A DNA stretch of 48,520 nt. Origin: a virus. Taxonomy: Duplodnaviria > Heunggongvirae > Uroviricota > Caudoviricetes. This document shows, piece by piece, positions 798 through 36,762 of this stretch. The stretch lies in the IMG/VR virus record IMGVR_UViG_2711768004_000012; one strand, 5' to 3'. A program made the position numbers and the translations under genes. The notes beneath the pieces were generated by a model. That model made no database searches. It saw nothing but the letters and a program-made list of their open reading frames with translations, and was not told the origin of the DNA. Each line of letters opens with the position of its first letter. The stretch's first letter is position 1.

Positions 798-3685
798 TAT
801 GCAAGCCTCACAATATAGTTAAATGCGATGTTTTTGACGGTGTTTTCCGCGTTACCAGCAGCGTTAACGGTGATGGTGTGTCCATGTGAACCAATCGCAA
901 CGGAGTGCGTATGAGCACCAATACCGACAGTATGCGCGTGTGCACCTGCAGATGCTGCTGTGCCGGACAGTGAATGGCTATGATTACCATCTATACTGGT
1001 ATTCGCTAACCACCCCGTAGACATACCTACTGAGCCTTGTACACCCCAGGTATTTTGACCTGAGCTTGTATAACCATATTGATAAGTATCTTTAAAAACA
1101 CTGGGGTTAAATCGACGGCCATCTCTATGGCTGTGATTACCAGCTGCATTCGTGCTGCCACTTAAACTATGGGTATGCGCACCAGTGTTATTCGTGGATT
1201 TAGTGCCGTAATCAAACGACGATGTGGTTTTCGTCCCCAAATCCGTACTGGATGCGCTGGCGCTGTGGGTATGCGATTTAATGCCGTCCTGTTCCTGAGA
1301 CAATACGGCCCGACCACTGGCAGGTTTGCCCTTAATCGTCCAGCCACGCATATCAGGGATCACGCCTGACGGATAAGCCGCTGCAAGTTTCGGGTATGCA
1401 GATTTGTCAAAAGCCTGCCCCTGCATCAGGGCATAGCCAGACGGAACGGTATCTGATGGCCACGGGATTGGTGCGCCAGGCGGATAAAACTGCTCTGATG
1501 GCGTATAGAGTGAATAAACTGTACCGTCCGTTAACCCTTCCGGCTTATTAGCAGAATATGCTGGTGACGTATGAATCGTCACGCTGGCATTACTGGTATA
1601 ATCCCATTGAATATTTACACCAGTCGCATAATTTCCGATTGCAACGTAAATATCGTAAGTATCACCAGATGTATTAACCCAGGCAAAATTTGTAAACCCT
1701 GTCAATGTGCGCTGCCATAAAGCACCAGTAATCCCCTTCGGATTACCATTACCTGCACGTAAAACAAGTTCAGATATACCTGCCTGTTGAGGTGACCCCA
1801 CGTTAAATCCAGCGCCACCAATCAACGTAATTGAAACAACAGAACTCGCCTGTGGCATGGTTACCGTTGCTAATTTGAACCAACCAGCACCACCGCTGAA
1901 TGACATTGTTGTTGAGTTAAGCGTACCAATATCTTTCGGCGTCAGTGTTATATCCGCTGAAAGCGCCTTACCATTCACCTTACGGGCAGAAGGTACCCGA
2001 CCATTCGCATTGTCATTAGCTGCTTTCACTGCTTTCGGTGTCGCAGCAAGCGTTTCAGATGTGCTGTTGGTTGCACTACTGAGCTGGACAATTCCTTTTT
2101 GTGCTGTCGTAGCGTCCTGTGCGGTGTATTTCCCGTTAGCCAGGTCATACGCGGCCTTAACGGCTTTTGGCGTTGCCGCCTGTGACTCGGAAGTGCTGTT
2201 AGTCGCACTGCTGAGCTGAACTATCCCTTTCTGTGCTGTCGTTGCATCCTGTGCGGTGTATTTCCCGTTAGCCAGGTCATACGCGGCCTTAGCTGTCTCG
2301 GCGCGCGTTGCCGCGGATTCCGCCGTACTTTTGCTCTGTGCTGCCGCTGCCGCACTGCCAGCAGCCTCTGTCGCCTTCGTGGATGCCGTCGTGGCGCTGC
2401 CCCTCGCTGCTGACGCCTGTCTGGTCGCCTCATCTTTTGAAGCAGACGCAGATGATGCCGATGACGCCGCCGAACTGGCGGACGATGCGGCAGCCGTTTT
2501 TGAGGATTCTGCGCTGGTTTCCGACGCTTTCGCGTTCGTTTCGGATGTCTTCGCTGCGGAAGCAGACCTCGCTGCTGCGCTGGCCTGTTCAGTGGCTTCG
2601 CCAGCCTTCGTTGTGGCTGTTGAAGCGGATGATGCGGCGCTTTCTGCCGATTTTCCGGCGGCGGTGGCACTGACTGCTGCCTCCTCTGCCTTAATGGACG
2701 CCTCACGGGCCGATGATGCAGCTGCTGTCTCAGAGTCTGCCGCAGCTGAGGCGCTCTGTTCCGCTGCCGTTTCAGAAGACTTAGCATTCGTCTCGGACGT
2801 TTTTGCCGCCTTCACGGAATTTCCTGCCGCCGTTGCCGAGGAGGCTGCACTGCTGGCGCTTGTGGAGGCGTTCGTTTCTGATGATTTTGCCGCCTCTTTG
2901 GAGGCCGCCGCATCTCTGGCTGAAGTGGCGGCTTCTGACGCTTTCGTTGTCGCNNNNNNNNNNNNNNNNNNNNNNNNNNNNNNNNNNNNNNNNNNNNNNN
3001 NNNNNNNNNNNNNNNNNNNNNNNNNNNNNNNNNNNNNNNNNNNNNNNNNNNNNNNNNNNNNNNNNNNNNNNNNNNNNNNNNNNNNNNNNNNNNNNNNNNN
3101 NNNNNNNNNNNNNNNNNNNNNNNNNNNNNNNNNNNNNNNNNNNNNNNNNNNNNNNNNNNNNNNNNNNNNNNNNNNNNNNNNNNNNNNNNNNNNNNNNNNN
3201 NNNNNNNNNNNNNNNNNNNNNNNNNNNNNNNNNNNNNNNNNNNNNNNNNNNNNNNNNNNNNNNNNNNCAGATGTGCCGGCATCACTGGCTGACTTCTTCG
3301 CGGCTGCCGTGTTCTGTGCCACCGCGGACGCGTTACGCGCCACCTCTTCCACCATCAGTTCAAAACGGCGCAGAGCCTCCGGACGGGCATCATCCTCCGT
3401 CATGGCACCGAGAAAATCATTCAGCGTACCGGGTCGGGAATCTTCATACACAGTGATGGTCCCGGCATGTGACGGCGGGAATCCTTCCACCAACAGAATA
3501 ACGCTGTACTGACCGTACTCAACGTCCATGCTGTAACGCCCGGCTTCATCCGGATTTTCTGAGGCCAGCGTGTTCACCACCACCGTGGTGCTGTTACGTT
3601 TTGCTTTCAGCTGGATTGTGCAGTTCTGTACCGGTTTTCCTGTGCCGTCTTTCAGTACACCTGAAATCTTTACTGCCATATTCAC
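797..3685 (-). CDS. stf: Side tail fibre protein (Stf-like); interrupted by N run 2954-3267
   Basis: 962 aa ORF; N-terminus [29 protein letters not shown] resembles lambda Stf; long Ala/Ser/Thr-rich central region; C-terminal His/Gly-rich receptor-binding region; followed by tfa. Confidence 0.8.
2040..2300. repeat. Direct tandem repeat inside stf, period about 132 nt (2 copies), encoding a duplicated ~44 aa block
   Basis: Nearly identical DNA, e.g. gtgctgtt...cccgttagccaggtcatacgcggcctta at 2061-2160 and again 132 nt later; protein shows [35 protein letters not shown] twice. Confidence 0.8.
2954..3267. other. Run of N (masked/undetermined, 314 nt) inside stf
   Basis: Literal n characters in the sequence. 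Confidence 1.
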
Positions 3686-3908: not shown

Positions 3909-4491
3909 NNNNNNNNNNNNNNNNNNNNNNNNNNNNNNNNNNNNNNNNNNNNNNNNNNNNNNNNNNNNNNNNNNNNNNNNNNNNNNNNNNNNNNNNNNNN
4001 NNNNNNNNNNNNNNNNNNNNNNNNNNNNNNNNNNNNNNNNNNNNNNNNNNNNNNNNNNNNNNNNNNNNNNNNNNNNNNNNNNNNNNNNNNNNNNNNNNNN
4101 NNNNNNNNNNNNNNNNNNNNNNNNNNNNNNNNNNNNNNNNNNNNNNNNNNNNNNNNNNNNNNNNNNNNNNNNNNNNNNNNNNNNNNNNNNNNNNNNNNNN
4201 NNNNNNNNNNNNNNNNNNNNNNNNNNNNNNNNNNNNNNNNNNNNNNNNNNNNNNNNNNNNNNNNNNNNNNNNNNNNNNNNNNNNNNNNNNNNNNNNNNNN
4301 NNNNNNNNNNNNNNNNNNNNNNNNNNNNNNNNNNNNNNNNNNNNNNNNNNNNNNNNNNNNNNNNNNNNNNNNNNNNNNNNNNNNNNNNNNNNNNNNNNNN
4401 NNNNNNNNNNNNNNNNNNNNNNNNNNNNNNNNNNNNNNNNNNNNNNNNNNNNNNNNNNNNNNNNNNNNNNNNNNNNNNNNNNNNNNNNNNN
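3909..4491. other. Run of N (583 nt) covering the J 3' end and lom 5' end
   Basis: Literal n characters. Confidence 1.
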
Positions 4492-7400
4492 TTTTGGTCA
4501 CAATCACCGTACAGTCGGTGATATTGCCTGCCCCCTGATTGCCTTTCTGGAAAATCTTAAACTCCAGAGTGACGCTACCACCACCACTAGGCATATCAAT
4601 AACTGCACTGTAACTACCGGGAATGGCCCCTTTAGTTTCTCTGGATGCGATTAATACGCCGTTTTTGCGAACTTCAAAACCATAACCCGTGTATCGCGTG
4701 CCTCCTGGGTTATTTCCGCTCCCCGGATCGTCATACGCTATACCGTTAAAAATAATGGGCGGAATAATAATCTGGCGGTCAAAGTTATGATCATCGCTGA
4801 TGGTGACTGTAACCGTACCGTCTGGTGTTTCCGTGTTACCCCACGTACCGACTTTTTTCGGGAAGGCTTTTGATACAGCTTTAACGAAATCCCCTCTGAC
4901 CTGGGTCGCCTCCAGCATGCCCTTAATCGTACAGTTCTGGTTAATCGTGACATTGTTGAGCGTTCCTGAGTTCGCATTCACACTACCACTGATATCCGCA
5001 TTTTTAGCGGTCAGCTTTCCGTCTGATGTCAGGGAAAATACCGGAGGACTGCCACCGCTGGTAATGGCGGGGGCTGTCAGGCGCTTCAGGAACACGTCGT
5101 TCATGAATATCTGGTTGCCCTGCGCCACAAACATCGGCGTTTCATTCCCGTTTGCCGGGTCAATAAACGCGATACGATTGGCGGCAACCAGAAACTGGCT
5201 CAGCTTGCCTTCCTCCGTGTCCTCCATGCTGAGGCCAATACCCGCGACATAATGTTTGCCGTCTTTGGTCTGCTCAATTTTGACGCCCCACATCGCATTC
5301 CATTTATCGTTAGCGTCCTTCCACTCTTTCGAAAACTCATCCAGTCTGCTGGCGTTATCCTCCGTCAGATCAACTTTTTCCAGCAGCTCTTTACCGAGAT
5401 GGGATTCGGTTATCTTGCCTTTGAAAAAATCCAGGTAACCTTCCGCATCATCGCTCGCCCGACCGACGGCCTCCACGAATGCCGATTTGCCAACGGTGTT
5501 CACACTGCGGATATAAAAGTAATAATCATGGCCCGGTTTGATATTGATACTGGCGGCTATCCAGTACAGCCCCGCGCCAAGGTAGCGGGCTGTGGTTTCA
5601 ACCTGCCTGATATCGGTAATCCGCGTTTCCGAGAACCAGAACTCAAACTGTACCGTCGGATCATAAACCGCAAGATGCGGCGTGGCAGTTATCTGAAAAT
5701 AGCCCGGCGTCAGCTCAATCCGCGACGGTGCTACCGGTGCGGCAATCCTGAACGATACCGACGCCGGATCGCCCTGCTGTCCCCAGGCATTTACCGCCCG
5801 GACTGTCAGCGTGTACCGTCCCAGCGCCAGTTGCGTGAAGCGGTATGTGGTTTCCGTCGTCCGGGCCGTGCTGACCAGCCGCTCACTGCCGTCATCCGCT
5901 GCCACGGTCAGGCGAAGCATAAAGCTCACCCCCTTCACCACCTTCGGCGTGTCCCAGCGCGCCAGCACCTGATATTCCCCGCTGTCTGCGGTGACTTCGG
6001 CAGTCAGGTGCTGCACCGCTGGCGGCGTGACACCATTCACCGTGCCGCTCTGGTCGCCGTCAAAGTGCGCCCCGTTATCCACGATGGCTTCTTTTTCCGG
6101 TACATGCTGCACGGCAGTGATGGCATACGTGCCGTCATCGTTCTCACGGATACTCACACAGCGGAACAGGCGCTGGCGCAACGTCGGCAGCTTCAGCCCC
6201 CACACGCTGTATTCAGCAACGCCGTCAGGAACACGGCTCACTTTCACCTTCACGCCGTCGGTGACGGACTGAACCTCCACGCTGACCGGATTGCCACTTC
6301 CGTCAACCAGGCTTATCAGCATGGTACCGGAGGATGGCAGCGTGATTTCACGGTCGAGCGTCAGCGTCCGGGTCTGGCTGTTTACCGCCAGCACGCGCCC
6401 GCCGATGCTGATACCCGCATAGTCATCATCACAGATTTCAATGACATCGCCCGGCACATGGCGAAGCCCTTCTGCGCCCACGCTGAAGTCCACGGTCTGC
6501 GTTTCCAGCAGTTCTGTTTTAATCAGCCACAGCCCGGCGCGGTGTGCCTGCCCCCGGCTGGTACAGCCAAAAGCATCCATCTTCGTGACGTTACGACCGT
6601 AACGGGCAATGGCCTGCGTATCCTCCACAAGCTCTGTCGCCGTCTCCCAGCCGTTATCCGGGTCAATCCAGTTCACCTCAACGGCATTATGGCGGTCNNN
6701 NNNNNNNNNNNNNNNNNNNNNNNNNNNNNNNNNNNNNNNNNNNNNNNNNNNNNNNNNNNNNNNNNNNNNNNNNNNNNNNNNNNNNNNNNNNNNNNNNNNN
6801 NNNNNNNNNNNNNNNNNNNNNNNNNNNNNNNNNNNNNNNNNNNNNNNNNNNNNNNNNNNNNNNNNNNNNNNNNNNNNNNNNNNNNNNNNNNNNNNNNNNN
6901 NNNNNNNNNNNNNNNNNNNNNNNNNNNNNNNNNNNNNNNNNNNNNNNNNNNNNNNNNNNNNNNNNNNNNNNNNNNNNNNNNNNNNNNNNNNNNNNNNNNN
7001 NNNNNNNNNNNNNNNNNNNNNNNNNNNNNNNNNNNNNNNNNNNNNNNNNNNNNNNNNNNNNNNNNNNNNNNNNACACCAGGCCATGTTGTTGCTGTATGC
7101 TGGTTTTAACGTTCCGTCCCAGATACCGCTGTATTGTCGCGTCTGCGGGTTATAGTTCGACGGCACCTGCAGAATGCGCCCGCGAAGATGATAATTACGA
7201 CTCACCTGCTGGCTGCCGAACTGCTCCGAGTCCACCTGTACGCCGACCAGTGCAGTGTTCGGGTAGCACTGTTTCACATCGATGATTTCGGTGTATGACG
7301 ACCAGAGCGTTTTGTTCTGCAGCTGGTCTGTGGTGCTGTCCGGTGTCATCCTGCGCATCCGGATACTGAACGGGCGCGGAGGCAGGTTATCCACCACCAC

Positions 7401-8590: not shown

Positions 8591-8678
8591 NNNNNNNNNN
8601 NNNNNNNNNNNNNNNNNNNNNNNNNNNNNNNNNNNNNNNNNNNNNNNNNNNNNNNNNNNNNNNNNNNNNNNNNNNNNN
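8591..8678. other. Run of N (88 nt) at the K/I junction
   Basis: Literal n characters. Confidence 1.
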
Positions 8679-24307: not shown

Positions 24308-24559
24308 TTAGTCCTGATTTTTATCCACCCTGAGTAGTTCGCGCAGAGCAAAGGCATCCCCTTTTCTGGCAAGCTTAAACAATGCCGCTCGTAACTCGGC
24401 TTCACCTTTCGCTCTGCCCTTACGGATGGCCGCATAAAAATCTGTCATTGCTTCCCGATTTTCTTTCAGTCGGTTCAGATCAACATCCAGAACGTCAGCG
24501 ATTTGTTGTGCAGTCATCCGGCACGCTGCCAGAGACTCGACTTTCGAATACGGAATCAT
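24308..24559 (-). CDS. Small hypothetical protein with HTH-like segment
   Basis: 83 aa ORF (MTAQQIADVLDVDLNRLKENREAM...) directly upstream of terS; overlaps the 3' end of the upstream gene. Confidence 0.4.
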   Translation of the reverse strand: MIPYSKVESLAACRMTAQQIADVLDVDLNRLKENREAMTDFYAAIRKGRAKGEAELRAALFKLARKGDAFALRELLRVDKNQD

Positions 24560-25445
24560 TTGTCACCCCCATTGATATGCAGGGTGTCTTCTTCCTGTAT
24601 TTTTCGTGAAGGATTTTTACTGCAGCGTTGTTCCAGGTGACCTGATGGTGAATGCGTTTATGACTGGCACCCATAAGTGAGATTTTTACGCACGACGGCG
24701 CATACATGACGGAGTAAAAACTTTTAACGTAGGTTCCGGAATCCAGATACAGCTCGGTCATTCCGCCGCTGTTTTTCTGCGTCTGTTTCTGCCCTAACTG
24801 GACAGCACCGATCGTCATAAACAATTCACCACAGCGACCGAGATTCGTGTACGTATTCACATCCTCGTTAATGCGCCCCATGAATGAGAACGGTCGATCA
24901 ACCGAACAGATAAAGCTGTTCATTGCCTTGCGTTTCACCCACGAAGCATGGCCGCCATTGTCACCAAGAAAATCCCCGCCCTGCGACATAGCGATGGAAA
25001 GAGCAGGTATTGATTCGTAGTACGCAAGCATTTCAGAAAGGATCTCATCCAGTTTCCTTATCGGGAAATAGGCCTGGTCATAGTTGCGATCCACCCGAAA
25101 CTGGAACTCGTGATAATCATCATCGAGCTGAATGAAGTATTTACACCCGACCAGTTTTGCCTGGTCGAAACAGGCATTACGGGCGTAAAAAATTGAGCGG
25201 CGGTCACTAAAATTATCGGCTTCGTCAAAACGACTAGCAATATCGGCTTTGGAAAATACCAGCACCTGTTCACCAAATTCAGCCATGTACTGATGCCGTG
25301 TCTTATCTTCATCATCAACAACGATAAAAATTTTCCCGGTATAGCCAGCACGACGCAACGTCCGGTAAGTCAGAACTTTGTCCGGTCGCCCGTGAGTCAG
25401 AATAAAGGCGCAAAAATCATCACGCATATTCCTCCTCCCCGCCAT
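24495..25445 (-). CDS. Hypothetical protein with DxD-type motif (possible glycosyltransferase-like fold); start may be at MRDDF (25427)
   Basis: 316 aa ORF; motifs IFIVVDDEDKT and YFIQLDDDYHEF resemble GT-A nucleotide-sugar transferase DxD signatures. Assignment is tentative. Confidence 0.4.
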   Translation of the reverse strand: MAGRRNMRDDFCAFILTHGRPDKVLTYRTLRRAGYTGKIFIVVDDEDKTRHQYMAEFGEQVLVFSKADIASRFDEADNFSDRRSIFYARNACFDQAKLVGCKYFIQLDDDYHEFQFRVDRNYDQAYFPIRKLDEILSEMLAYYESIPALSIAMSQGGDFLGDNGGHASWVKRKAMNSFICSVDRPFSFMGRINEDVNTYTNLGRCGELFMTIGAVQLGQKQTQKNSGGMTELYLDSGTYVKSFYSVMYAPSCVKISLMGASHKRIHHQVTWNNAAVKILHEKYRKKTPCISMGVTNDSVFESRVSGSVPDDCTTNR

Positions 25446-26208
25446 GCATGATCTCCACCATGCGCTGCGTCATTCGGACAAATCCATTTTCAATAGCCTG
25501 CTGATAATCAATGATCACCAGCGCCGACTCCTCGAAAAGGCACTGAATTTCAGCGGGGGCATGAGCGTAATAGTCCGCAATTCTGCTGAAATTAAACACC
25601 GTGTGACGTTCTGCTGCACACAGGAGGAATTTCTCAATATCAGGATCAAGGGACGCCGAACGTATCCGGCTGATCAGCTCCTGAGTTTTCGTATCGTCGT
25701 ACAGTTCACTGATATCCGGTTTACCGCCTGACGGCTCATAAACAGGCGTATCAATTTTCGTCGTATACGGCTCCTCCTCATTTCCTGTACCGGGCAAAAC
25801 ATCCGTCAACAGTTCATCAATTTCTGCCGGGATGAAGCCTGTCAGGGAGACATCAAAATCAGCATTGATTAGGTCCGACAGCTCCATCCGCAACAGATCT
25901 TCATCCCAGCCAGCATTCATCGGCAGGCGATTATCTGCCAGGCGGTACGCCTTTTTCTGCTCATCCGTCAGGCCAGACAGAACAATGACCGGAACAGAAT
26001 CCATTTTGAGCATTTCAGCCGCCATAACACGACCGTGACCCGCAATAATTTCGCCCTTTTCGTCAATCAGCACCGGATTAGTCCAGCCGAATTGCTTAAT
26101 ACTTTCTACCAGTTGTGCCACCTGCTCAGTACTGTGCGTCCTGGCGTTGTGCGCATACGGTGACAATTCTTGTAATGGGCGATAGACTATCTTTAATTTC
26201 TCGCTCAT
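25420..26208 (-). CDS. ParB-like nuclease domain protein
   Basis: 262 aa; N-terminal region ...NPVLIDEKGEIIAGHGRVMAA... resembles the ParB N-terminal (sulfiredoxin-like) GxGR-type motif common in phage ParB nucleases. Confidence 0.65.
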   Translation of the reverse strand: MSEKLKIVYRPLQELSPYAHNARTHSTEQVAQLVESIKQFGWTNPVLIDEKGEIIAGHGRVMAAEMLKMDSVPVIVLSGLTDEQKKAYRLADNRLPMNAGWDEDLLRMELSDLINADFDVSLTGFIPAEIDELLTDVLPGTGNEEEPYTTKIDTPVYEPSGGKPDISELYDDTKTQELISRIRSASLDPDIEKFLLCAAERHTVFNFSRIADYYAHAPAEIQCLFEESALVIIDYQQAIENGFVRMTQRMVEIMHGGEEEYA

Positions 26209-26345
26209 ACAGCCTTGCTTTATGAATAAAACGCACCCCAGCAGCCAGTGCTACTGGGGGCGGAGGTGTTGCTGGTAAAGTTAGGTATTGGATCAATGAG
26301 TGAGTCAACATAATATTAAACTCACAATTATAAATCAGCCATATA

Positions 26346-27821
26346 TTAGGAGCGCCAAAAAAAACCTGAAAACAATATAATAACAGGATAAATTTCAAGG
26401 CGACCAAGAATCATAGCTATGCACATTAAATATTTTGCAATGTCATTAAGCACTCCGAATGACGATGCAGTAGCCCCAAAACCTAATCCCATATTATTAA
26501 TACATGCAGCCACTGTTGCAAATGATGTAAGAAAATCATATCCCATACCATTTAACACCAGTATAAAAAACACCGTGAAGAGAGTATAAAGAAAAAAGAA
26601 ACTCCATACAGACCTCATTACACGATCTGTAACTATCTTCCCTCCTACATTTACACTCAACAACGCTCTGGGATGAGAAAGCTGATTTATCTCGTGTTTG
26701 CTTTGTTTGAAAAGTATAAGAAATCGAAGTGACTTAATTCCACCACAGGTTGAACCTATACATCCCCCAAAGAAACTTGACAACAGCAAAAACACTATCG
26801 TGTGCGTGGGCCAGTTTGCATAATCCTGCGTAGCTAAACCATTATCAGTGAGCATGGAGCTGGCAAGAAAAAACGAATGAATAAAACTTCCATGCAAGTC
26901 ATACATACCTATATGCCAGACCTGGAAAGAGGTAACAATGATCACCCCTAAGGCTATTAACAGAAAGAAACGAAGTTCAATATCTCTGATTAAAGGTTTT
27001 ATCGTTTTTCTGCTAATAACAATATACCAAAGAGTGAAGTTGAAAGCCGATAGCAGGGAAAAAGAACCAGCCACCAGCTCAACCAAATAGTTATTAAAAT
27101 ATCCGATACTCTCGCTATGAGTTGAGAAACCACCAAGCGAAACTGTGGAAATCCCGTGACAAATAGCATCAAACAAAGGCATTCCTGCAAGTCTATAACA
27201 GACAATACAAGCAATACCTAATAAAGAATAAGTTATCCACAGTGTCCGTGACGTATCGGCCAGGCGGGGAGTGAGTTTGTCATCCTTAAATGGCCCCGGC
27301 ATTTCTGACTGATAAAGCTTTGCACCACCAATACCCAATAATGGCAATACTGCAACCGCCAGAACAATAACTCCTAAACCACCTATAAAATTTAACTGTG
27401 ACCGATAGTACAAATATGCCCGAGGTAATGAACTAACATCATCAATTACAGTTGCTCCTGTTGTTGTTATTCCAGAAACCCCTTCAAACAGAGCATCAAT
27501 GAACGTTAAATTAAGTTCTGAGTCAATCCATAAAGGGAATGCACTAATAACAGAAAACAAAATCCAAAACATTACAATTATAATAAACCCATCACGGGTA
27601 CGTAATTGAATGCCAGATTTCTTAGTTGTATACCACGCTCCGCCACCAATGCAAAAAAATATAACGAAAGTTATAAAGAAAACGAACAGGCTTTTTTCTT
27701 TATAAAACAATGCTACAACCATTGGTGGCAACATTGAAAGACTATAGAGCCAAACCAGGAACCCACACATATGAGTAACAACTCTTACATGAGATGTATT
27801 CATATCTAAATATTCTTTCAA
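26346..27821 (-). CDS. trkG: TrkH/TrkG-family K+ uptake membrane protein (moron); possible start at MNTSHVRVV (27803)
   Basis: 491 aa polytopic membrane protein matching my recollection of Rac TrkG (MNTSHVRVVTHMCGFLVWLYSL...); markedly AT-rich compared with flanking phage genes. Confidence 0.8.
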   Translation of the reverse strand: MKEYLDMNTSHVRVVTHMCGFLVWLYSLSMLPPMVVALFYKEKSLFVFFITFVIFFCIGGGAWYTTKKSGIQLRTRDGFIIIVMFWILFSVISAFPLWIDSELNLTFIDALFEGVSGITTTGATVIDDVSSLPRAYLYYRSQLNFIGGLGVIVLAVAVLPLLGIGGAKLYQSEMPGPFKDDKLTPRLADTSRTLWITYSLLGIACIVCYRLAGMPLFDAICHGISTVSLGGFSTHSESIGYFNNYLVELVAGSFSLLSAFNFTLWYIVISRKTIKPLIRDIELRFFLLIALGVIIVTSFQVWHIGMYDLHGSFIHSFFLASSMLTDNGLATQDYANWPTHTIVFLLLSSFFGGCIGSTCGGIKSLRFLILFKQSKHEINQLSHPRALLSVNVGGKIVTDRVMRSVWSFFFLYTLFTVFFILVLNGMGYDFLTSFATVAACINNMGLGFGATASSFGVLNDIAKYLMCIAMILGRLEIYPVIILFSGFFWRS

Positions 27822-28262: not shown

Positions 28263-28512
28263 NNNNNNNNNNNNNNNNNNNNNNNNNNNNNNNNNNNNNN
28301 NNNNNNNNNNNNNNNNNNNNNNNNNNNNNNNNNNNNNNNNNNNNNNNNNNNNNNNNNNNNNNNNNNNNNNNNNNNNNNNNNNNNNNNNNNNNNNNNNNNN
28401 NNNNNNNNNNNNNNNNNNNNNNNNNNNNNNNNNNNNNNNNNNNNNNNNNNNNNNNNNNNNNNNNNNNNNNNNNNNNNNNNNNNNNNNNNNNNNNNNNNNN
28501 NNNNNNNNNNNN
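28263..28512. other. Run of N (250 nt) covering the R 3' end and Rz 5' end
   Basis: Literal n characters. Confidence 1.
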
Positions 28513-29364: not shown

Positions 29365-29760
29365 CTAACCTCGCATGTCAAAGCCAGATTTCTGAAAATC
29401 TCTGTAGACTTCCGGATTGTTGAAGGCCGGAAATTTGGCTTTATGAGCTGCGGACTTTATCGCTTCGCAATAGGCTTTATCACCGTTACTGGTAGATATT
29501 TTTAACGCCGTGCCATCCTGAGAGAATTCCATATGCAACCTGCATTTTTTCCCTTTCCAGTTATGCGGCTCATCAAGTTTGGCATTAATTGCAGCTCTGA
29601 TTCCCCGCGCTTGCGCCCCCCATTCATCCTGATCATCCCAGCGTCCTGAACTGCAACTACCTGTAGCAGTAGTTTTGTGGCAATCTGAAGGGTGTAAAGG
29701 TGTGCATCCCGCAACAAAACCGACCCAAAAAGTCAACATAACGATTTTCTTTAATCCCAC
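29365..29760 (-). CDS. Lipoprotein with TolA C-terminal domain (domain III)-like region
   Basis: 131 aa; signal peptide plus lipobox (FVAGC); mature part ...KKCRLHMEFSQDGTALKISTSNGDKAYCEAIKSAAHKAKFPAFNNPEVYRDFQ... resembles TolA-III (two Cys, PxxxxVY motif). Confidence 0.7.
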   Translation of the reverse strand: MGLKKIVMLTFWVGFVAGCTPLHPSDCHKTTATGSCSSGRWDDQDEWGAQARGIRAAINAKLDEPHNWKGKKCRLHMEFSQDGTALKISTSNGDKAYCEAIKSAAHKAKFPAFNNPEVYRDFQKSGFDMRG

Positions 29761-29910: not shown

Positions 29911-30339
29911 TCAGGGTTTAAAATCCAGCACCCCATTTTGAAATACTTTATATACTTCCGGCGAAGGGGGGGCAGGTATATCAGCATTCTTTATCGCATT
30001 CATCGCTTCACGACATAAATCGAGGTCTCCACTTTCTCTTTTAACCTCCAGTAGAAGGCCATTCGGGGCCATATGCATTCTCAGTGTACACTCTTTTCCT
30101 GAATACTTACTCGCATCCCCGAACTGTTTTTCGATGGCGCTCTTGATTTGATGGGCATACAGACGGATATCCTCACTAACATCAGAAGTACGTTCAGATG
30201 AACTCACATACTGTGTCTCTATTGCTTTATCGGAGTAATATGATGTACGGTCATGATAATTTGTCGATACAGCATCAGTGCACCCGATAATAATCCCACT
30301 AATAATCAACGTAAGAATTGATGCGCTACGAAAACCCAT
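29911..30339 (-). CDS. Lipoprotein with TolA domain III-like C-terminus (closer TolA mimic)
   Basis: 142 aa; signal peptide plus lipobox (IIGC); C-terminus YAHQIKSAIEKQFGDASKYSGKECTLRMHMAPNGLLLEVKRESGDLDLCREAMNAIKNADIPAPPSPEVYKVFQNGVLDFKP closely parallels the E. coli TolA C-terminus as I recall it (YAGQIKSAIESKFYDASSYAGKTCTLRIKLAPDGMLLDIKPEGGDPALCQAA...PSQAVYEVFKNAPLDFKP). Confidence 0.75.
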   Translation of the reverse strand: MGFRSASILTLIISGIIIGCTDAVSTNYHDRTSYYSDKAIETQYVSSSERTSDVSEDIRLYAHQIKSAIEKQFGDASKYSGKECTLRMHMAPNGLLLEVKRESGDLDLCREAMNAIKNADIPAPPSPEVYKVFQNGVLDFKP

Positions 30340-34584: not shown

Positions 34585-35586
34585 TTAGTAATCTGCGTGT
34601 TTCGCACTTTTCAGAAATGCTTTCATATTTTCATTAGGTCGCTCAATTTCGAAGTTACTTCCATATAACTCTTGTAATTTTGGCCATAACTTACTTAATA
34701 ACCCTCTCCTGCGATAAAATGGATGTATCCAAACGGTAGATAGGTACGGAGAATTTGCATTTGAATTGTTTATTGTGACCAGCCCAACTAAACATTGTCG
34801 ATAACCACTATTATCCATTGATTGTATTTCTTCGACGAATGGATACGCGATTACATCAGTCCAACCATGATCGGTTGTATCCCATTGCATTCCGTCATGA
34901 CATTCCTTCGACTGATAGCGGCGTAAAGCTACACACGCGAGCTTTTGCCAATCTGGAGAATTAATTGTGATCTCTTCATCGTATGACGCGCCTATTGGAG
35001 CGGGTATTGGTCTGATTAATCCAGCATGGCATTCATCATAGAACTTCATGTTTCCCTCAGAAACGTTGTGTACGTTGGGTTGCTCCATGTGTGCGCCATT
35101 CAAAAATAGCTCTGATAGTAGTGTATCTACACTGTAATCTTTATTGATTATTGTCGGCTTAGAGTTTTTCTTATTAAGGCCGCGAGTAACGATTTTTTGA
35201 TCAATGTTAACAACATGGAATAATCCGTCGGGGAGGCTAGCGAACCACGATGGGGCATCGGACCAGAATAGCATGCCTTTTGTACTTCTTAAGAGTTTAA
35301 TTAAGTTAATACAAGCTTCTTCACTAGTCTTGCCGTTGATGCGAAGTATGTTAGGACTAAAGTAATATTCATCCATATCAGGGAATGCAGCTTCGCAAAA
35401 CTCCTGTACATAATTTAGCACCTGGATTCTACAGAGATCATCATAGCTGGTAATAACTAAGGGGGTATCTTCATTACTATTATGATTATCAATAATGCAA
35501 TCTATAGCGAGACTTACTGCTTTGCGTATCACTTCAGTTGAATCTAACGACTCTAAAAATTTTGTCTTTCGTGTGCGAATATCCAT
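34585..35586 (-). CDS. Hypothetical protein with GNAT-like acetyltransferase C-terminal domain
   Basis: 333 aa; C-terminus ...CLVGLVTINNSNANSPYLSTVWIHPFYRRRGLLSKLWPKL... fits GNAT motif A (beta strand then R-x-x-G-x-hydrophobic); AT-rich; 15 nt downstream of the preceding gene (operon). Confidence 0.5.
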   Translation of the reverse strand: MDIRTRKTKFLESLDSTEVIRKAVSLAIDCIIDNHNSNEDTPLVITSYDDLCRIQVLNYVQEFCEAAFPDMDEYYFSPNILRINGKTSEEACINLIKLLRSTKGMLFWSDAPSWFASLPDGLFHVVNIDQKIVTRGLNKKNSKPTIINKDYSVDTLLSELFLNGAHMEQPNVHNVSEGNMKFYDECHAGLIRPIPAPIGASYDEEITINSPDWQKLACVALRRYQSKECHDGMQWDTTDHGWTDVIAYPFVEEIQSMDNSGYRQCLVGLVTINNSNANSPYLSTVWIHPFYRRRGLLSKLWPKLQELYGSNFEIERPNENMKAFLKSAKHADY

Positions 35587-35601
35587 GTATGACCTGCGCT
35601 A

Positions 35602-36562
35602 TTAAAATTCATGAATGAACGGTTTGTCATCTGGTTGCAAAATGGTGGTTTTATTCGTTGCTACATTTAAACTGTTGTAGAGCATAATTGCCAGGTTCGA
35701 TGCATTTTCAATCAGCGTTTCAAGATCCTGGTCTGTAATCACTACGAGGTTCCCTTCTTTATCCTTTCCACCACGATGCACTAAGTGATTTCGATTGAGG
35801 GTTGCCAATTCAATAGCTTCTATCGGACAGTCTTTTTGTACTTTTATATCGAATGTAGCTTCATAGCGGTCGATTACCTTTTTAGTGCTATGCCAGCTTG
35901 CACTGATCAAGTGTTCCTTGATTGACCTGATTAGCTCTCCCCTAATTTTCTCGATGGGTTCACCCTTGAAAGGCAACGCAGCAATATCTTTGCTTACTTT
36001 AAATTCAGTCTTACCTTTTTCTATACAATTGGCTATGTAGACATCATCTTTCTCTATAGAATTAATGAATAGCTCAACATAAAGCGTTTCCAAAGCTGTA
36101 ATAACATTCGTGTAGAGCAAACTAAGCAAGTGGTTTTTTTGCTGTTGTTCAGTTTTATCTTTTGCAAGTTTTTTTATTTTATCGATATTATCAATGAATT
36201 TTAAATACGGATTACCGGAAGACGTTACAGCGTCGTAGATATCATCATCGTACCAATCATCTATATTATTTGAGTTTCCAGACCAGTCAAAACATTGTGT
36301 TTGTAATTCATCTACTAATTCCTCAATATACTCAGATTTAACATATTGACCGAAGATGGATTGTAGTTCTTCGCTCGCATCATACGGCCCGCCATATATG
36401 TAAGCATAGCCACCTTCTCTACTTTCATACGGACAAGCATTTGCCGGATCTTCAAAGTTTTCAAAGAACCAGTTTTTCATTACTTCGAGTTGATCTTTTT
36501 TGCTTATGTATTTTAAAGATTTTAGTGGAACTTTCTTTCCATTAACCTCGAAAACAATTTTC
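35602..36562 (-). CDS. Hypothetical protein with HEPN-like R-N-x3-H motif (probable GTG start; ORF track extends to 36693)
   Basis: About 320 aa; C-terminal region ...ELATLNRNHLVHRGG... contains R-N-H-L-V-H (Rx4H); SD AAGGGAG before GTG AAA ATT; AT-rich; first gene of a two-gene operon. Confidence 0.45.
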
Positions 36563-36762
36563 ACGATGTAACGCTCCCTTGTATCAATTGCGCAACTATT
36601 ATACCACAGCGAAATACAGGGCATAACCTGCCTCCTTAAACTAACATACCATGAGCCAGCAATGTCCGCTATTGGCACAAAGCGGACAACCACGCTAGCT
36701 CTCCCCTGTGCCAGAAAAATGTCAATTTACATATGAACTAATGCTCTTTGATCTAGTAACGT

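Follow-up and report, generated by a model that had tools for sequence, protein, structure and literature searches.

The 48,520-nucleotide (nt) virus record IMGVR_UViG_2711768004_000012 of IMG/VR (hereafter the window) is an almost complete lambdoid prophage of Rac type of Escherichia coli. Ahead of its packaging genes it encodes a glycosyltransferase of the TAGT (TET-associated glycosyltransferase) family. Together with the product of the upstream gene annotated ynaK (hereafter the partner), this enzyme was found to make up a two-gene cassette that is very widespread and as yet uncharacterised, and that lacks the usual upstream chemistry. That an active, partner-dependent TAGT of Mn2+/DxD type glycosylates phage DNA around packaging was given an even chance of being the correct account of the cassette. 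The identity of the enzyme was already present in databases under family names and is not new; its place in the cassette is.

The glycosyltransferase

The open reading frame (ORF) 24495..25445(-) encodes 316 amino acids (aa), with VVDDEDK at residues 42-48 and QLDDDYHEF at residues 106-114. In a preliminary description, made from the letters alone, these motifs had been read as signs of a GT-A-fold sugar transferase, located together with an overlapping 83-aa ORF of helix-turn-helix (HTH) type between a ParB-like gene and the terminase. Both ORFs, the motifs and the two flanking genes, encoding a ParB/Srx protein and the terminase small subunit (TerS), were found as described (Table 1). The start was refined: it is almost certainly M7 (ATG at 25427-25425), which gives a protein of 310 aa, because the Shine-Dalgarno sequence GGAGGAGG lies upstream, the codon overlaps the upstream stop, and both the homologues and PGAP start there. 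The ATG overlaps the TGA of the partner gene as ATGCGTGA, which suggests that the two genes are translationally coupled.

The sugar transferase assignment was borne out. The match to Pfam PF20691 (TAGT) scored 118.8 bits (cut-off 27.5; E 4e-34), spanned model positions 4-205 of 205 and is not due to chance; PHROG 842 ('beta-glucosyl-HMC-alpha-glucosyltransferase') was matched at E 8e-104. All 120 TAGT homologues among the matches listed contained PF20691, and the family comprised more than 7700 clusters at 90% identity and 1325 clusters at 50% identity (E up to 1e-3). NCBIfam held no model for the TAGT or for the 83-aa ORF, the TAGT had no match in PADLOC, and a sequence search of solved structures with the TAGT returned none even at E 10.

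Structure prediction gave a GT-A fold with a DxD site, that is, a single Rossmann-like nucleotide-sugar transferase, and not an unrelated family. The AlphaFold2 model based on a 110-sequence alignment reached a predicted local distance difference test score (pLDDT) of 91.4 and a predicted template-modelling score (pTM) of 0.86. In an earlier model based on 35 sequences the C-terminal half was poor (pLDDT 66.7), and Foldseek assigned it to GT-A at a low template-modelling score.

The acidic motifs were strongly conserved. D44, D47 and D108-D110 (316-aa numbering) were invariant in 35 homologues with 58-98% identity, and D41 and D102-D104 (310-aa numbering, used from here on) stayed almost unchanged across 110 homologues with identities as low as 39%, in which N187 and D189 were invariant. 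In these 110 sequences R14, D102-D104 and N187-E188-D189 formed an invariant or nearly invariant R...DDD...ED set, as described for phage GT-A DNA glycosyltransferases and JGT (bioRxiv 10.1101/2023.12.21.572611). By analogy with GT-A enzymes generally, the IVVDDED site probably contacts the donor nucleotide. Comparison with other enterobacterial orthologues gave nonsynonymous differences per site (pN) of 0.12-0.18, with synonymous differences (pS) saturated at 0.73-0.89; the gene is under strong purifying selection.

The homologues are about 285-290 aa long, and the E. coli-lineage TAGT carries about 21-25 extra C-terminal residues resulting from read-through. The 65-nt overlap with the 83-aa ORF exists because this tail reads through; in other enterobacterial loci the small ORF begins at or beside the TAGT stop. 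Over the last 20 or so residues of the tail the pLDDT fell below 60 (AlphaFold2).

The partner protein and the cassette

A full-length partner was located directly 5' of the TAGT, on the same strand, in 82 of the 83 related viral loci for which upstream sequence was present, and in these 82 the two genes overlapped or were separated by no more than 41 nt. In the single exception a ParB-like partner lay 3.2 kb off and the TAGT was the N-terminal half of a 572-aa ORF. The same pairing was present on four of four metagenome contigs with three different terminase types (packaging genes of GpA type, Terminase_4/TerL_ATPase type, and others), in Lactobacillus gasseri phage phi jlb1 (order ParB-TAGT-TerS-TerL, TerL being the terminase large subunit) and in the haloarchaeal virus HHTV-2. 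The neighbouring gene, which the preliminary description had treated as a separate ParB-like nuclease, thus encodes the obligate partner of the enzyme (82/83 loci).

The domain structure of the partner (Table 1) was derived from an alignment of 37 partners made non-redundant by dereplication. Pfam recognised only ParB_N (residues 23-90) and no HTH DNA-binding domain, and the head could be aligned to Spo0J (1vz0, residues 23-112), with GHGR in place of GERR. A canonical partition ParB was rejected on account of this substitution, the missing HTH domain, a TIGR00180 score of 38.1 below the cut-off of 58.45, and the absence of parA from the prophage annotation. The head matched the N-terminal region of PADLOC 'MTase_II' (E 1.5e-38) and the DNA methyltransferase family PHROG 498 (E 6e-51). 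It was present in 432 phage records, and many of the 40 listed were annotated as DNA (adenine) methylases; by these matches it is of the type that phages fuse to DNA methyltransferases.

The best-conserved part of the partner is its C-terminal module of about 115 residues, which opens with Y-[TSC]-x-K-x3-P-x-Y-x-P-x4-P, after which comes a helical domain with the pattern FL..AA.RH.VF.Y..IA.YYAH...Q.LME.SALVIID..KAIE.G. No Pfam family was assigned to it (recurrent matches to PF23887 stayed below threshold), and a search of solved structures with its profile gave nothing below E 0.14. A stand-alone form of about 131 aa makes up at least 7342 clusters, and none of the 120 listed had a Pfam domain. 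The partner is acidic, with a net charge of -24 overall and -12 in the C-terminal module, and the stand-alone forms have a median isoelectric point (pI) of 5.35, while the TAGTs are mildly basic (median pI 8.6).

The stand-alone module likewise adjoined a TAGT in six of six look-ups, five times immediately upstream or overlapping and once across an S-adenosylmethionine (SAM) methyltransferase gene, in a setting of replication and recombination genes (PolA, primase, a clamp-like protein, ERF, NinB/G). The same was seen in the 191-kb Vibrio phage pv27. Because stand-alone modules also adjoin TAGTs, the C-terminal module plus the TAGT is the conserved unit, to which a ParB head has been added in temperate phages beside the terminase. 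Judged by gene order, this TAGT subfamily is not solitary; it carries a conserved, unnamed partner domain. In the literature searched, neither the C-terminal module nor its strict pairing with TAGTs of this subfamily was found described, and nothing useful came to light on ynaK, or on HHTV-2 in connection with ParB.

The partner gene is truncated in K-12 MG1655 (1425377-1425980), where the 87-aa YnaK is an N-terminal stump of the 262-aa partner. In K-12 Rac, ynaK is directly followed by ydaY and tail remnants, so the deletion that crippled Rac took out the TAGT together with the terminase and head genes, as well as the C-terminal module of the partner. In strain EC2 the intact partner gene is mislabelled by PGAP as an 'incomplete' ynaK pseudogene.

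Proposed mode of action

In the favoured account the C-terminal module of the partner would bind the TAGT in a physical complex and activate or direct it, and the ParB head would provide a nucleotide-gated means of holding this complex on DNA. The cassette would be made late, translationally coupled to the genes for the small HTH protein and the terminase. Late expression is proposed because the coupling to the terminase genes is tight and the only strong hairpin lies upstream, after trkG; since no terminator of comparable strength to that at 26236-26259 was found within partner-TAGT-HTH-TerS, these four genes may be read as a single late transcription unit. A sugar taken from a nucleotide-sugar would then be attached to phage DNA after its replication, just ahead of packaging or in the course of it, and would presumably blunt host nucleases and so serve against restriction.

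All characterised viral and kinetoplastid TAGT relatives glycosylate DNA (PMC13216743, PMC13390438, bioRxiv 10.1101/2023.12.21.572611). The expectation in the preliminary description that this slot holds DNA-modification or packaging accessory genes fits both the TAGT family and the partner. According to PMC8256090, in which the work is cited, a role of ParB in directing modification enzymes while DNA is packaged was reportedly put forward by Iyer et al. (2013).

The acceptor

Several points weigh against glycosylation of phage DNA by this pair. Canonical DNA has no hydroxyl on any base. Characterised TAGT relatives that act on DNA need 5-hydroxymethylcytosine (5hmC), 5-hydroxymethyluracil (5hmU) or a pre-attached sugar: TET-linked phage glycosyltransferases act on 5hmC, JGT on 5hmU, and the T2/T6 enzyme on the glucose of glucosyl-5hmC (PMC13390438, PMC13216743, bioRxiv 10.1101/2023.12.21.572611). 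No TET/JBP dioxygenase, thymidylate-synthase-type hydroxymethylase or alpha/beta-glucosyltransferase was found in the prophage by PGAP names and Pfam, and no TET/JBP or other source of hydroxymethyl bases was recorded on the nine cassette contigs looked up. TET_JBP was not among the 25 commonest of 65 families in 149 neighbouring ORFs of 13 diverse loci, a count that would allow for a rare case; the commonest were terminases, ParB_N, TAGT, portal and similar families. No partner-TAGT fusion occurred among 262 collected proteins (the one match was a fragment). The C-terminal module is unlikely to bind DNA itself because it is acidic, and the NTPase (nucleoside triphosphatase) cycle of the ParB head may be altered by GHGR in place of GERR. 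GREB1, a TAGT-domain protein, is an O-GlcNAc protein transferase (PMC7968844). No experiment on this TAGT subfamily was found in the literature searched.

A hidden first-step enzyme in the window was sought with Pfam scans of ten unnamed or poorly named larger ORFs, in addition to the PGAP names. The scans returned a weak, sub-threshold HEPN/RES-type N-terminal match, a weak GNAT match, TolA-C, domains of unknown function and an integrase; a concealed TET/JBP or thymidylate-synthase-like gene was not found. It is very unlikely that the TAGT performs a second step on a hydroxymethylated or glycosylated base whose first step would be carried out in trans, be it by an enzyme of another prophage or of a co-infecting phage or by one that escaped recognition. 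The label of PHROG 842, the family precedent in T2/T6 and TET-linked clusters, and the thousands of contigs with unannotated dioxygenase-like genes (PMC13229309) speak for such a supply. Against it, no first-step gene was found in the window or the sampled neighbourhoods, and small complete phages bear the cassette, such as phi jlb1 (38 kb), in which no hydroxymethyl-base gene is annotated in the 10.8-kb region around it. No hydroxymethylase was found in 50 of the 191 kb of Vibrio phage pv27. Sequence divergence puts the T2/T6-type enzymes out of the range of tblastn, and the strict pairing is with the partner module and not with a base-modifying enzyme.

The main rival to DNA glycosylation is a serious one, though somewhat unlikely in our estimate: the acceptor would be a protein, and the cassette would encode an enzyme with its substrate or with an adaptor. 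The sugar would go either to the partner itself (for example to an invariant tyrosine, as in glycogenin) or to a protein of the packaging machinery, the virion or the host to which the partner gives access by presenting it. The cassette is autonomous, without a base-hydroxylating enzyme; the extended two-tyrosine motif N-terminal to the helical domain is invariant in every partner, the stand-alone forms included; and the acidity of the partner points away from DNA binding. Structural neighbours of the TAGT model include the protein- or peptide-glycosylating GT-A enzymes glycogenin, SunS/ThuS, COLGALT1, POMGnT1 and the GalNAc-Ts. A DNA-directed task, however, more easily explains the fusion of the module to a methyltransferase-type ParB head and the placement among replication or packaging genes. 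The residue after the first tyrosine varies (T/S/C), so that no conserved Ser/Thr acceptor is offered, and docking peptides equally typically show conserved linear motifs.

A self-sufficient cassette with a glycosylation chemistry new to TAGT proteins, directed to canonical DNA or to the partner tyrosine, was regarded as rather doubtful, both versions taken jointly. In the former, a sugar would be linked, for example, to an exocyclic amine (N-glycosylation), or else to the DNA backbone or a DNA end, with the partner opening access to double-stranded DNA (dsDNA); in the latter, the partner itself would be glycosylated and turned into a glycoprotein effector.

The enzymes accompanying the TAGT elsewhere bear on a further alternative. 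Tailoring enzymes were found nearby or fused: a SAM methyltransferase, a sulfotransferase, a second TAGT and a cytidylyltransferase-like protein. In the long TAGT proteins the enzyme is joined to a methyltransferase, a sulfotransferase or a second TAGT. Several of these are typical of small-molecule or glycan tailoring and would suit an acceptor that is neither DNA nor protein (a nucleotide or second messenger, RNA, or an envelope precursor) with a role in counter-defence or host manipulation. The TAGT might also be a dispensable accessory gene of little function in E. coli, as it is split or decayed in several Lactobacillus delbrueckii phages and deleted in K-12 Rac. This group of explanations is decidedly improbable: the same tailoring enzymes occur in DNA hypermodification clusters (PMC13229309), strong purifying selection and invariant catalytic residues speak against a relic, and no evidence of a membrane or secretion signal was found for the cassette. 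Both it and the base supplied in trans were considered less likely than protein glycosylation.

Variants of the cassette were recorded as follows. In one, the partner, a SAM methyltransferase, the TAGT and an HNH gene are followed a few genes on by a C5 DNA methylase; in another, the TAGT precedes a cytidylyltransferase-like gene and a clamp-like gene. The TAGT is split in two or reduced to a short remnant in several phages of L. delbrueckii (phiLdb, Ld17, LL-Ku, Ld25A), and in c5 and PMBT4 it is intact; the losses suggest that the cassette is dispensable under some conditions. Many E. coli proteins consist of the first 230-260 or so TAGT residues joined to tail-fibre, tail-assembly or NlpC/P60 sequence, which suggests recurrent deletions that fuse the TAGT to distal tail genes in decaying prophages.

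Comparison with known systems

Phage glycosyltransferases associated with TET/JBP (PF20691) glycosylate 5hmC made by a C5-methyltransferase and TET (Burke 2021, Pyle 2024). The present enzyme resembles them in Pfam family, GT-A fold and R...DDD...ED motifs, and in being phage-encoded, often near terminase and ParB, and presumably post-replicative. Unlike there, no methyltransferase/TET pair was found here, and a dedicated partner module absent from those papers is present instead. The TET/JBP association, to which the TAGT name is owed and which is not a structural requirement, is lacking in this prophage.

The T2/T6 beta-glucosyl-HMC-alpha-glucosyltransferase adds a second glucose to give gentiobiosyl-5hmC (PMC13390438, PMC13216743). 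It shares Pfam family and fold with the TAGT of the window and is the source of the PHROG 842 name, and the T4-like representative of Klebsiella phage PKO111 was matched structurally at E 1.6e-8. In sequence, by contrast, the T-even enzymes were not reached by tblastn at E 1e-3, and that of Aeromonas phage 65 was 22% identical. The T2/T6 enzyme needs a dCMP hydroxymethylase and an alpha-glucosyltransferase, neither of which was found in this window. A function of T6 type, with a second glucose placed on glucosyl-5hmC, was therefore rejected, and the PHROG 842 name is a misnomer here because the companion genes are absent and the similarity is distant. 'GREB1-related protein' and 'ParB-like partition protein/nuclease' are likewise misleading names at this locus.

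Some phage thymine dioxygenases need a ParB-like activator on dsDNA, as described for 5mYOX176/ParB176 (O'Toole et al., PNAS 2026, PMC13229309). Activators of the ParB176 type have a nucleotide-binding head and a C-terminal domain and no DNA-binding domain, and 5mYOX dioxygenase pathways commonly co-occur with glycosyltransferase and terminase genes (PMC13229309). The likeness to the present pair is one of architecture: a modifying enzyme with a small ParB-like protein made up of head, linker and C-terminal domain, without HTH. The client differs, being a glycosyltransferase here and not a 5-methylpyrimidine dioxygenase, and so does the conserved element, since the C-terminal module alone is the conserved partner here, often without a ParB head.

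A further parallel is given by the fusions of ParB to N6/N4 DNA methyltransferases in prophages, as the ParB head of the partner is up to about 50% identical to phage methylases. In those the catalytic methyltransferase is itself fused, whereas here the fusion joins the head to an adaptor-like module and leaves the enzyme separate. The positions sampled in phage records of Streptococcus, Yersinia and Vibrio seem consistent with a place before the packaging genes. Prophage ParB-fold fusions to methyltransferases have been catalogued by Kaljevic et al. (PMC12704722), in whose main text the word 'glycosyltransferase' is absent.

According to the literature (PMC7968844, bioRxiv 10.1101/2023.12.21.572611), the GT-A catalytic domains of JGT and GREB1 are homologous to that of the TAGT; both proteins are without the partner module. 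JGT needs 5hmU made by JBP; GREB1, a cytoplasmic protein of 1949 aa, O-GlcNAcylates ER-alpha (estrogen receptor alpha) on Ser/Thr (PMC7968844).

Solitary TAGT homologues of undefined function were reported in 288 of 753 glycosyltransferase-encoding phage genomes (PMC13216743, 2026). About 65% of glycosyltransferase-containing contigs had no neighbouring dioxygenase or hydroxymethylase, and ParB and terminase were among the neighbours (Pyle et al., bioRxiv 10.1101/2023.12.21.572611). The window sets a TAGT of this 'solitary' type in a genetically tractable Rac-type prophage as a concrete two-protein system. The cassette is very abundant: clustered at 90% identity, each of its halves gives at least 7000 clusters. 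Should canonical DNA or the partner protein prove to be the acceptor, this would be new chemistry, and about 15-30% of complete E. coli genomes would contain a new class of phage modification system; should there be no modification at all, the family annotation would have to be revised. ParB heads might, as a general rule, act as carriers for methyltransferases, dioxygenases and glycosyltransferases.

The small HTH gene

The overlapping 83-aa ORF, described before as HTH-like, is a real gene of HTH type and belongs with packaging, not with the enzyme. It aligned with PHROG 309 only at positions 145-218 of 319, that is, the HTH region, and ends 3 nt before the ATG of TerS. The 83-aa start is better supported than the 69-aa start chosen by PGAP, because conservation begins at residue 1 in 52 of 84 loci, the family match begins at residue 3, and GGGGGTG precedes the start. 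A full-length TerS with an oligomerisation domain was rejected in view of the partial match, which indicates a relative of the N-terminal, DNA-binding HTH region only, and a paralogue of the adjacent 364-aa TerS was rejected for want of similarity. Where loci are more distant, the equivalent slot is filled by longer TerS-like proteins that share its N-terminus. Because cassettes beside other terminases lack the 83-aa gene, it is tied to the terminase type and not to the cassette, and its product is likely a packaging accessory.

Genomic context

The minus-strand gene order is lysis genes, trkG moron, ynaK (ParB/Srx), TAGT, 83-aa ORF, TerS, TerL, portal, head and tail (Table 1). A 3.1-kb region around the cassette was identical (100%) to E. 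coli EC2 and further strains; it was matched in 1617 of 5426 complete E. coli genomes, with at least 80% of its length covered in 839.

Table 1. Position of the cassette, its functional sites and the adjoining genes in the window
Feature	Position	Strand	Basis or remark
TerL, 436 aa	21928..23238	-	Pfam Terminase_6N/6C
TerS, 364 aa	23210..24304	-	Pfam Terminase_2, PHROG 51; directly 3' of the 83-aa ORF
Basic HTH protein, 83 aa, pI 9.3	24308..24559	-	PHROG 309 'terminase small subunit', E 8e-23
Overlap (65 nt) of TAGT read-through tail and start of 83-aa ORF	24495..24559	-	Ends of homologues, related loci
TAGT-family GT-A glycosyltransferase, 310 aa from M7	24495..25427	-	PGAP name 'GREB1-related protein', WP_001614535
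N-E-D codons of RINEDVNTY, residues 187-189; third conserved active-site motif	24861..24869	-	Conservation
DDD codons, residues 102-104; DxD metal/diphosphate motif	25116..25124	-	End of modelled strand E97-102
D-D-E-D codons of IVVDDEDK, residues 38-41 of 310	25305..25316	-	Acidic end of beta-strand 2, modelled strand E32-38
Shine-Dalgarno sequence of TAGT	25431..25438	-	3 nt 5' of the M7 ATG; read from the sequence
Partner, ParB/Srx gene annotated ynaK, 262 aa	25420..26208	-	
Partner, conserved acidic C-terminal module, aa 146-262	25420..25773	-	Alignment; invariant Y, K, P, Y, P
Partner, helical segment and variable acidic linker, aa 101-145, net charge -12	25774..25908	-	Alignment of 37 partners
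Partner, ParB/Srx nucleotide-binding head, aa 1-100	25909..26208	-	Pfam ParB_N, E 8.7e-7
Terminator-like hairpin	26236-26259	-	Strong, 10-bp stem with 7 GC; between trkG and partner gene
trkG moron (potassium transporter)	26346-27821	-	Between lysis genes and cassette

The GC content of the trkG moron is lower (0.37-0.40). Five masked runs of N are present in the window, none of them near the cassette (2954-3267, 3909-4491, 6698-7073, 8591-8678 and 28263-28512). They fall in tail-fibre and tail genes and in the lysozyme gene and skew ORF calls and composition there, as exemplified by the GC and AT-skew spikes at 2-5 kb.

In the early region two unnamed ORFs adjoin each other, one of 333 aa (34585-35586, minus strand) with a weak GNAT match (E 9e-4) and one of 363 aa (35602-36693, minus strand) with a weak match to a HEPN/RES N-terminal domain (E 2e-4). 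Neither was matched in PADLOC; the pair (34585-36693) may be a moron of defence or toxin type. The small ORFs 29365-29760 and 29911-30339, both on the minus strand between the Q-like antiterminator region and the lysis genes, encode TolA C-terminal domains.

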